From: an uncultured Methanosarcinales archaeon
Lineage (GTDB): Archaea > Nanobdellota > Nanobdellia > Woesearchaeales > WAPY01
NCBI GenBank assembly: GCA_964385745.1
Contig: CAYLQB010000001.1
Coordinates: 1-33,874, forward strand
DNA length: 33,874 nucleotides
Reading direction: 5' to 3'
Shown piece by piece: positions 14,700-17,036 of this stretch. A program made the translations under genes and the position numbers. Under the pieces are notes generated by a model. It was not told where the DNA came from. It worked only from the letters and a program-made list of their open reading frames with translations, and made no database searches. Every line of letters begins with the position of its first letter. Position 1 is the stretch's first letter.

Positions 14700-14707
14700 T
14701 TTATAAA
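14700..14707 (+). promoter_or_regulatory. Candidate TATA box (TTTATAAA) for tRNA-Phe
   Basis: The octamer ends 28 nt before the mature tRNA 5' end (14736) and is preceded by an A-rich BRE-like GGAAAAC. Confidence 0.5.
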
Positions 14708-14735: not shown

Positions 14736-14846
14736 GGGTCGGTAGCTCAGTGGGAGAGCACCACGCTGAAGCCGTGGGCGTCCGGGGTTCAAATTGGAAA
14801 CTATAATACCAAATTTTTAGTTTCAATGAAAGTCCCCGCCGACCCA
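14736..14846 (+). tRNA. tRNA-Phe (anticodon GAA) interrupted by a ~39-nt intron in the T-loop
   Basis: Hand-folded cloverleaf.
- Acceptor stem: GGGTCGG/CCGACCC, discriminator A.
- D arm: GCTC-AGTGGGA-GAGC.
- Anticodon arm: CCACG-CTGAAGC-CGTGG, with GAA at 14768-14770.
- Variable region: GCGTC.
- T stem: CGGGG (14783-14787) pairs with CCCCG (14834-14838).
- T loop: TTCAAAT, followed by 39 nt (14795-14833) that are not part of the tRNA.
No CCA is encoded, and a T-run follows. Confidence 0.85.
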
Positions 14847-14958
14847 TTTTCTTCTTTTAGTTTAGGTTATGAGCATAGTTGGTATGCTTCTTGGATGTCT
14901 TCCACTATTTTTGGTAAGGAGAATAATTGGTTTGTATTACTCTATAAAATAAGTATAG

Positions 14959-15292
14959 AAGTGAATATCCTCCTCAAACACCTTTTACCAGACATAAGAA
15001 AACCTGAACAGTTTTCTTTGCACAAAAACTAAAGAGTTTTTTGTGTTTTCTATGAAAATCTTAAGATGCTACTCATGTTAAGGCACGGAAGGTTCGGAGG
15101 ATTTCACAAAGTGAATATCCTCCTCAAACACCTTTTACCAGACATAAGAAAACCTGAACAGTTTTCTTTGCACAAAAACTAAAGAGTTTTTTGTGTTTTC
15201 TATGAAAATCTTAAGATGCTACTCATGTTAAGGCACGGAAGGTTCGGAGGATTTCACAAAGTGAATATCCTCCTCAAACACCTTTTACCAGA
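14959..15292. repeat. Tandem direct repeat, 150-bp unit, 2 perfect copies plus a partial third
   Basis: Block 14961-15110 is identical base for base to 15111-15260 by direct comparison. The first 32 nt recur at 15261-15292. The following TTTTCTGTGAAAATCTGAATGA resembles the unit-internal TTTTCTATGAAAATCTTAAGATG, so copy 3 looks like a deleted, diverged copy. Confidence 0.95.
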
Positions 15293-15465
15293 TTTTCTGT
15301 GAAAATCTGAATGACATCAACTCCCGACCATTTATTCCTCCTTCGTTTATAACCTCATATTTTAGTAGAACCAGAGAACAACTTAATAACCAGGAGTTAA
15401 GAACAAGCCAAGTTATTGTTATTATCTGAAGTTTGAAGTTAATAAACAATATCAAAACAAAAAAT

Positions 15466-15473
15466 TTTATAAA
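15466..15473 (+). promoter_or_regulatory. Candidate TATA box (TTTATAAA) for glyS
   Basis: The octamer ends 21 nt before ATG 15495, giving leaderless-type spacing. Confidence 0.45.
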
Positions 15474-15494
15474 GAATCATACTTAACTTAAGGT

Positions 15495-17036
15495 ATGGAA
15501 AAAATAAGCAACGCCGGGGATAAGACCAAGAATATAAAAATTAGTGATATCATCTCTTTCTGTAAAAAAAAAGGATTTGTTTTCCAAAGCTCTGAAATCT
15601 ATGGGGGCTTCGCGGGATTTTTTGATTATGGACCTTTAGGTGTAGAATTAAAGAACAAAATTAAGCAGGTATGGTGGAAAAAACATGTCAACCAGAGAGA
15701 AGATATTGTTGGAATTGACGGCTCGATAATTCTTAACCCAAAGGTTTGGGTTGCGTCTGGACACACAACAAAATTCTCTGACATTCTTGTCGAGTGCAAA
15801 AAATGCCATCAAAGATTTAGAGCTGACCAATTAATTGAGGAAAAAACAAAAAAGAATGTTGAGGGGCTTCCTGTTGAGGAACTGTCTAAATTAATCAAAG
15901 AGTATAAAATTAAATGCCCAAACTGCGGAGGCGAACTCTCAGAACCAAGAAAATTTAACATTATGTTCAAAACATATGTTGGTCCGACAGAATCGGAAGA
16001 GAACACTGCTTATTTAAGACCTGAAACAGCTCAAGTCATATTCACTGAATTTAAGAATGTACTTGATGTCTCACGTAAGAAACTTCCCTTTGGCATTGCA
16101 CAGATTGGAAAATCATTCAGAAATGAGATAAGCCCAAGGAATTTTCTCTTTAGAGCGAGGGAATTTGAGCAGGCAGAGATTGAATATTTTATAAGAGAAA
16201 AAGACATTAATAACTGCCCTTATTTTAATGAATTTGAGAATTATAGAATAAACATATTAAGCGATGACATGCAGAACAAAAATGAGAAAGAGAAGATGAT
16301 GAGTTTAAGAGAGGCGTTTGATAAGAAGATTATAAATAACGAATGGCAGGCGTTTTGGATTGGCTTTGAGCATAGTTTCCTCACCTCCTTAGGTCTAAGA
16401 CCTGAACATCTGAGAGCAAGGCAGCATTTGAGTACTGAGAGGGCTCACTACTCCCTTGACACATGGGATTTAGAATTCAAATTTCCTTTTGGCTGGAAAG
16501 AAATTGAGGGCATAGCGAATAGAACAACCTATGACATGAACAAACATATCAAATCCTCAAAAAAGGACTTAAGATATTACGATGAGGAAACAAAAGAAAA
16601 AATTGTCCCTTATGTTGTCGCTGAGCCGAGTCTTGGAATAGGGAGATTATTTTTAGCCATACTCTTCGAGGCATACAAGTATGACGAAAAGAGAGGCAAT
16701 ATTGTTTTGACATTAAAACCGGAGTTGGCTCCAATTGAGGTCGCTGTCTTTCCACTGTTATCAAACAAAAGAGAGTTACTAAGTTATGCCAAAAAAATCT
16801 TTAAAACGCTGAGTGAGGAGTTTAACTGTGTATTCGACAAATCAGGTTCGATAGGAAGAAGATACGCGAGACAGGATGAAGTAGGCACTCCTTACTGTAT
16901 AACAATTGACTTCGATTCCCTGAAAGATAAGGATTTCACATTAAGATTCAGGGACAGCACAAAACAGATTAGAGTCAGTGAATCAGAACTATTAAACAGG
17001 ATAAGGAATTTAATTAAGGAGGAAAAAACAGATTAG
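15495..17036 (+). CDS. glyS: Glycyl-tRNA synthetase, archaeal/eukaryotic dimeric class II type
   Basis: 513-aa ORF. N-terminal GFVFQSSEIYGGFAGFFDYGPLGVELKN. Class II motifs FRNEISPRNFLFRAREFEQAEIEYF and GIGRLFLAIL. C-terminal anticodon-binding domain contains GRRYARQDEVGTPYCITID. Confidence 0.95.
   Translation: MEKISNAGDKTKNIKISDIISFCKKKGFVFQSSEIYGGFAGFFDYGPLGVELKNKIKQVWWKKHVNQREDIVGIDGSIILNPKVWVASGHTTKFSDILVECKKCHQRFRADQLIEEKTKKNVEGLPVEELSKLIKEYKIKCPNCGGELSEPRKFNIMFKTYVGPTESEENTAYLRPETAQVIFTEFKNVLDVSRKKLPFGIAQIGKSFRNEISPRNFLFRAREFEQAEIEYFIREKDINNCPYFNEFENYRINILSDDMQNKNEKEKMMSLREAFDKKIINNEWQAFWIGFEHSFLTSLGLRPEHLRARQHLSTERAHYSLDTWDLEFKFPFGWKEIEGIANRTTYDMNKHIKSSKKDLRYYDEETKEKIVPYVVAEPSLGIGRLFLAILFEAYKYDEKRGNIVLTLKPELAPIEVAVFPLLSNKRELLSYAKKIFKTLSEEFNCVFDKSGSIGRRYARQDEVGTPYCITIDFDSLKDKDFTLRFRDSTKQIRVSESELLNRIRNLIKEEKTD

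Follow-up and report, generated by a model that had tools for sequence, protein, structure and literature searches.

Introns that interrupt the T loop of tRNA genes between positions 59 and 60 have been described in ARMAN-2 (Ca. Micrarchaeum), where they occur in pre-tRNA-Pro(GGG) and pre-tRNA-Cys(GCA), and the Cys intron was shown to be cleaved in vitro (Fujishima et al. 2011, PMC3239211). In the Thermoproteales, non-canonical and transposed tRNA introns are found at many positions, 59/60 among them (Sugahara 2008 and Fujishima 2010, per PMC4090602). The enzyme side of these systems is the splicing endonuclease EndA. The alpha4 enzymes are stated to act on a strict bulge-helix-bulge (BHB) motif at the canonical site (PMC3239211), and a loop around the catalytic His, as in N. 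equitans, has been discussed as a route to broad EndA specificity (PMC3488258, PMC5829648). Kaneta et al. 2018 (PMC5829648) reported alpha4-type EndA from DPANN lineages rich in disrupted tRNA genes, and one Woesearchaeota genome was included in their survey.

Here we describe a tRNA-Phe(GAA) gene interrupted at 59/60 in a Woesearchaeal DPANN archaeon. The window, which is the whole stretch of DNA analysed, comprises 33,874 nucleotides of contig 1 of an assembly of 836 kb (34.8% G+C, 76 contigs, 94% complete). The host agrees with the lineage statement of the original prediction, that introns outside 37/38 are known mainly from Thermoproteales and some DPANN lineages, which is roughly right. 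As in ARMAN-2, the host belongs to DPANN and the intron sits at 59/60 of the T loop, and the Pro intron of ARMAN-2 has a strict hBHBh' motif too. In contrast, the Cys intron of ARMAN-2 is a relaxed hBH motif of 13 nt, whereas the intron described here lies in tRNA-Phe, has the strict motif and measures 39 nt; the EndA of ARMAN-2 is a three-unit epsilon2 enzyme with a specificity loop, whereas only a plain 187-aa alpha subunit was present here.

Read directly from the sequence, the interrupted gene occupies positions 14736-14846 of the window on the + strand, as do all the features below. The 5' strand of the acceptor stem, GGGTCGG (14736-14742), is followed by the D arm, the anticodon arm CCACG-CTGAAGC-CGTGG with the GAA anticodon at 14768-14770, the variable loop GCGTC and the 5' strand of the T stem, CGGGG (14783-14787). 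In the unspliced layout, TTCAAAT (14788-14794) is separated by 39 nt (14795-14833) from the 3' strand of the T stem, CCCCG (14834-14838), after which come the 3' strand of the acceptor stem, CCGACCC (14839-14845), and the discriminator A14846 (A73). Exon 1 (14736-14793) covers tRNA positions 1-59, including T-loop nucleotides 54-59, and was delimited from the sequence, a permissive Rfam search and ARAGORN after removal of the intron. The 39-nt BHB intron at 59/60 (14794-14832) was placed by a match to the strict BHB model and by the cloverleaf that its excision restores. Exon 2 (14833-14846), supported by the sequence and by ARAGORN after intron removal, consists of T60, CCCCG, CCGACCC and A73, and it does not encode the CCA end. 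An octamer resembling a TATA box, TTTATAAA (14700-14707), is found 28 nt ahead of the 5' end of the tRNA and, from its position alone, is a putative archaeal promoter of the gene. Directly 3' of the discriminator base there is a T-rich tract, TTTTCTTCTTTT (14847-14859), which is likely to act as an archaeal termination signal.

The junctions of the insert form an hBHBh' motif (14783-14838) that was identified in the sequence and by a strict BHB scan, shuffling and folding. The outer helix H1 is the T stem itself (14783-14787 with 14834-14838, 5/5 pairs). In the central helix H2, TTCA (14788-14791) pairs with TGAA (14827-14830) at 4/4 positions. Two 3-nt bulges, AAT (14792-14794) and AGT (14831-14833), lie on opposite strands, each 3' of its H2 strand, which is the geometry of a true BHB substrate and not of its mirror image. 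The inner helix H3 (14795-14803 with 14818-14826) contains 8/9 pairs: seven base pairs (14797-14803 with 14818-14824) and, beyond one G.A mismatch (G14796.A14825), the pair T14795-A14826. Thus the helices and the two bulges were re-read as first claimed, and the inner helix, given there as 7-8 bp, was recovered at this length. With two opposed 3-nt bulges, a 4-bp centre and both flanking helices, the motif has every element of the archaeal hBHBh' type, and the proposal that it is a substrate of the archaeal splicing endonuclease was supported by the sequence-level tests that follow.

When the 39 nt were shuffled, 589 of 200000 shuffles (0.3%) gave a strict BHB whose register regenerates the tRNA, and only 10 of 200000 (0.005%) gave such a BHB together with an H3 of at least 8/9 pairs. 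The T arm with the intron folded with z = -3.0. In the minimum-energy fold of RNAfold, H1 and H3 were present and the 4-bp H2 was absent, which weighs against splicing. We also scanned the genome for strict BHB motifs, spliced each candidate in silico and submitted the products to ARAGORN. This pipeline made 0 calls from 82414 candidates in the reversed genome, while with an equal number of candidates from the real genome tRNA-Phe and other tRNAs were called.

The unspliced tRNA-Phe locus received no call from ARAGORN (default and -i) and no Rfam match at the gathering threshold; with an E-value threshold, the Rfam tRNA model matched only positions 10-42 of the unspliced gene, at 20.1 bits. 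Standard finders are blind to the locus because of the position of the intron in the T arm, and not because a gene is absent. Once 14794-14832 was deleted, ARAGORN called tRNA-Phe(gaa) with a cloverleaf, a GAA anticodon and A73, so the exon-joined sequence is accepted as tRNA-Phe and the predicted gene, with its 39-nt insert at 59/60, was confirmed by anatomy and by in-silico excision alike. Every symmetric cut within the bulges yielded a 7-nt T loop, either TTCAAGT or TTCAAAT, just as had been foreseen. With the canonical cut, which follows the second bulge base, the loop was TTCAAAT, as in the intronless orthologues, and the predicted exon junction then reads ...GGGGUUCAAA joined to UCCCCGCC. 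The same model, with cleavage after the second bulge base, placed the canonical introns of Val(GAC) and Thr(CGU) in this genome at 37/38, which serves as a check of its register. The spliced tRNA-Phe was identical at 70/72 positions to the intronless tRNA-Phe of genomes of the same family (97% across the exons).

A second tRNA-Phe gene was not found in the 94%-complete assembly, in which a DNA search of the organism's own genome returned one match. BLAST of exon 1 against the genome likewise matched only the locus on contig C1, and no other GAA anticodon arm of the genome lay in a tRNA-like context. Two ARAGORN calls elsewhere in the genome were rejected: the 'Phe(aaa)' on C14 is really a Ser(GGA) gene with two introns, one canonical and one in the T loop, and the 'Phe gaa' within Tyr on C16 is spurious, produced by wrongly excising 11 nt.

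In all five genomes of the same family (5/5), tRNA-Phe is intronless, and in most of them it adjoins glyS, as it does here. From these two facts it follows that the intron was gained in place and recently. The gain is thereby dated by its absence from sister genera, at a locus that is glyS-linked in most of them. Compared with the window at 14736-17036, both the order and the orientation of the two genes vary among the genomes: the tRNA precedes glyS here, glyS precedes the tRNA in three of the relatives (G001, G003 and G005), and the two are divergent in another (G002). Elsewhere in the order, tRNA-Phe introns were found at 37/38, at about 45-47 or at about 53/54.

We further searched the order with the signature GGTTCRA-N20-50-GAAAKTCC, which, like the pattern used for metagenomes, predetermines part of H2 and of the bulge. 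It was present in 155 of 201 genomes, and a control with the reversed pattern gave far fewer matches across the order. This genome contained 9 copies and 0 of the reversed pattern, and its family 0-4. In the metagenomes, 12 contigs (at least 9 of them distinct) carried tRNA-Phe(GAA) genes with unrelated introns of 25-50 nt at 59/60; H1 was paired 5/5 in 12/12 and H2 4/4 in 11/12, part of this pairing having been fixed by the search pattern. The Phe intron itself was not met again, since a pattern of the exact exons with a gap of 25-55 nt had no match in the metagenome contigs. In several of the metagenomic tRNA-Phe genes interrupted at 59/60, a further insert preceded the anticodon arm, around the D arm or position 26 (contigs L134, L137, L138, L140, L142, L143 and L145). 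BHB introns at 59/60 are therefore already known, from ARMAN-2, and common in this order, and the tRNA-Phe intron adds one case. What may be less appreciated is the dominance of one site in the order, the EndA without a specificity loop and the recent gains.

Standard tools find only 19-20 tRNAs in this genome. With motif scans and pattern searches, we found an insert at 59/60 in no fewer than 13 further tRNA genes or fragments of genes. Among these are Glu(CTC), Ser(UGA), Ser(GGA), Asp, Gly(GCC), Leu(UAA) and Leu(CAG), a pair of additional Leu genes, each with a canonical intron as well, a Leu gene at the start of C39 (C39(+) 1-200), Ala(CGC) (C19(-) about 11702-11366, with an intron of ~262 nt and G3:U70 present), a second Ala gene whose 3' exon is at the end of C27, and Gly(UCC), which runs from C9(-) 163-1 into C6(+) 1-110. 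Leu genes with a 59/60 intron number four or five in total. In their motifs the central helix is down to three pairs, which means that the enzyme must accept a somewhat relaxed substrate. In the Leu gene on C39, at about 30-45, the T loop reads TCCGAA, with C in place of the near-universal U at position 55. Canonical introns at 37/38 were found in Met, Thr, Val, Tyr, Trp, Ile and Asn, and Lys(UUU) has a 22-nt BHB intron in the D loop, at about position 20/21 (C16 7032-7053).

The introns of Glu(CTC) (C4 13825-13857) and Gly(GCC) (C62 4479-4511) were identical at 28/33 positions, which points to the transfer of an intron between two unrelated tRNA genes. In this respect the genome resembles the Thermoproteales, in which near-identical introns occur in unrelated tRNA genes and gains are lineage-specific; unlike there, a single site, 59/60, dominates here, and the Phe intron has no clear donor in the genome. 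A direct copy of the Phe intron from such a donor was considered and rejected, as BLAST of the 39 nt returned AT-rich chance matches only and its alignment to the Glu and Gly introns was weak. The 59/60 introns of Ala(CGC), Gly(UCC), the C39 Leu gene and the second Ala gene were long, from about 130 to more than 260 nt. They share modules such as CAGCTTTTT...AAAAACCTGGGAAAAATGCGG, and the assembly breaks inside these introns. The long Ala intron matched no Rfam family. A relaxed scan had given the Ala(CGC) intron as 139 nt, misled by an internal direct repeat; the true 3' exon is further downstream. The 5' parts on C9 and C19 had also been read as split tRNAs, and this was discarded when their 3' exons were found at the start of C6 and downstream on C19.

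The genome encodes one EndA of 187 aa (C7:11511-12071, Pfam PF02778 and PF01974), which is of the alpha type and adjoins an RNase Z-like gene. No paralogue and no gene for a second (beta) subunit was found in the genome, and the nearest relatives of the protein are Woesearchaeota or Nanoarchaeota records. It could be aligned from end to end with the M. jannaschii alpha4 enzyme (1A79, E = 5e-32), and its catalytic domain was gap-free in this alignment (residues 119-187 against 103-171). Against the N. equitans alpha subunit it showed a 6-residue deletion at the loop KKGKRSEREH around the catalytic His, and neither alignment revealed an inserted specificity loop (CSL, ASL or NEQ type) near the catalytic site. 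The enzyme thus looks like a plain alpha4 type of the narrow-specificity kind and, judging from gene content only, is presumably a homotetramer. Like the organisms of Kaneta et al. (PMC5829648), this one combines a single alpha-type EndA with a DPANN genome rich in interrupted tRNAs; those authors link the trend to the L3 loop, whereas the EndA here has no insertion there relative to M. jannaschii.

The original prediction held that an intron outside 37/38 implies an endonuclease with a relaxed substrate range. This was not borne out for tRNA-Phe, as the motif is a strict 3-4-3 hBHBh' and the single EndA lacks a specificity loop. Since the motif is strict, relaxed specificity need not be invoked. 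The T arm at 59/60 offers a 5-bp stem and a 7-nt loop cut after loop base 6, as at 37/38. It is thus the structural counterpart of the canonical site, at which an enzyme acting on strict BHB motifs needs no widened specificity. As in a canonical archaeal 37/38 intron, the first four loop bases pair with the 3' end of the intron, cleavage follows loop base 6 on one side and precedes loop base 7 on the other, and the same enzymes would serve; the difference is that the tRNA-Phe intron lies in the T arm and not in the anticodon arm. The published statement that alpha4 enzymes act on strict motifs at the canonical site weighs against such a role at 59/60.

The RtcB ligase gave no PF01139 match and no tblastn match in the 94%-complete assembly, which counts against splicing. 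All relatives searched (25/25) have RtcB, and with the assembly in 76 contigs its absence is probably an assembly gap.

On this basis we infer a pathway of tRNA-Phe maturation in which transcription, the cleavage register, ligation and the oligomeric state of EndA are all predicted. The TTTATAAA box would drive transcription of the gene. Once the precursor has folded, the outer helix would be the T stem, T-loop nucleotides 54-57 (UUCA) would pair with the terminal UGAA of the intron over 4 bp, and the 7-8-bp intron hairpin would provide the inner helix, leaving the two 3-nt bulges on opposite strands. EndA would then cleave each bulge between its second and third bases (A59|U and G|U60), and an RtcB-type ligase would join the exons to give the 7-nt T loop UUCAAAU in a tRNA of 72 nt. 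Finally, the CCA end would be added after splicing.

We are confident that 14736-14846 is the working tRNA-Phe(GAA) gene of the organism and that the 39-nt archaeal BHB intron it contains at 59/60 was acquired recently, because the spliced product matches the orthologues, the assembly holds no other Phe gene, the motif exceeds chance and the arrangement recurs. It is improbable, by comparison, that the insertion inactivated the gene and left a decaying copy, with a functional tRNA-Phe lying in the unassembled ~6% of the genome. The fragmented and incomplete assembly, the missing RtcB, the several tRNA genes broken at contig ends and the absence of the intron from all five relatives would fit such decay, but the exons are intact and close to their orthologues, a random insert rarely creates a strict BHB in register, and both the promoter-like box and the T-tract have been kept. 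Moreover, the other tRNA genes interrupted in the same way are mostly single-copy isoacceptors, and the intact Phe copy that decay calls for was not found in the assembly.

Still less credible is the view that the insert is retained and that mature tRNA-Phe has an enlarged T loop with an extra hairpin. This would destroy the interaction of the T loop with the D loop, and the BHB register is exact. In addition, the 59/60 inserts range from 25 to ~260 nt and differ in sequence while the splice motif is always kept, which is expected of a sequence that is excised and not of a functional arm. That the insert is an assembly or chimeric artefact is hardly conceivable, even for a metagenome-assembled genome with a tandem repeat close by, as it is unique in the genome, occupies one precise structural position with matched pairing, and has counterparts of the same design in independent assemblies.

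ARAGORN, and Rfam at its curated thresholds, both miss the single tRNA-Phe found, along with a dozen or more further tRNA genes of the organism. Hence, where tRNAs have been reported as 'missing' from Woesearchaeal and other DPANN genomes, the cause is likely to be a failure of detection. We further propose, tentatively and as a possibility that we hold somewhat less probable than its opposite, that a family of mobile BHB introns, still on the move from one tRNA gene to another, may land preferentially at 59/60 in Woesearchaeales, sustained by a loop-less alpha4-type EndA. This proposal draws on the recent gain in tRNA-Phe, the identity of the Glu and Gly introns and the repeated modules that the long introns of Ala, Gly and Leu have in common with intergenic repeats adjacent to tRNA genes. 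A loop-less alpha4 enzyme would suffice for it because the T arm mimics the anticodon arm. If true, it would contradict the published rule that abundant introns at non-canonical positions require a broadened EndA. As its EndA has the appearance of an alpha4 enzyme, the lineage also lends itself to asking whether such enzymes are constrained at all by where an intron sits, as distinct from the shape of its motif.

Between tRNA-Phe and glyS, the window contains a perfect 150-bp tandem repeat in 2.2 copies (14959-15292). Partial copies of it adjoin other tRNA genes on C35, C18 and C46, and the repeat may represent a family associated with tRNA loci. One 28-nt module of the repeat, GGTTCGGAGGATTTCACAAAGTGAA, recurs in the long T-loop introns at the contig ends of C6 and C27.
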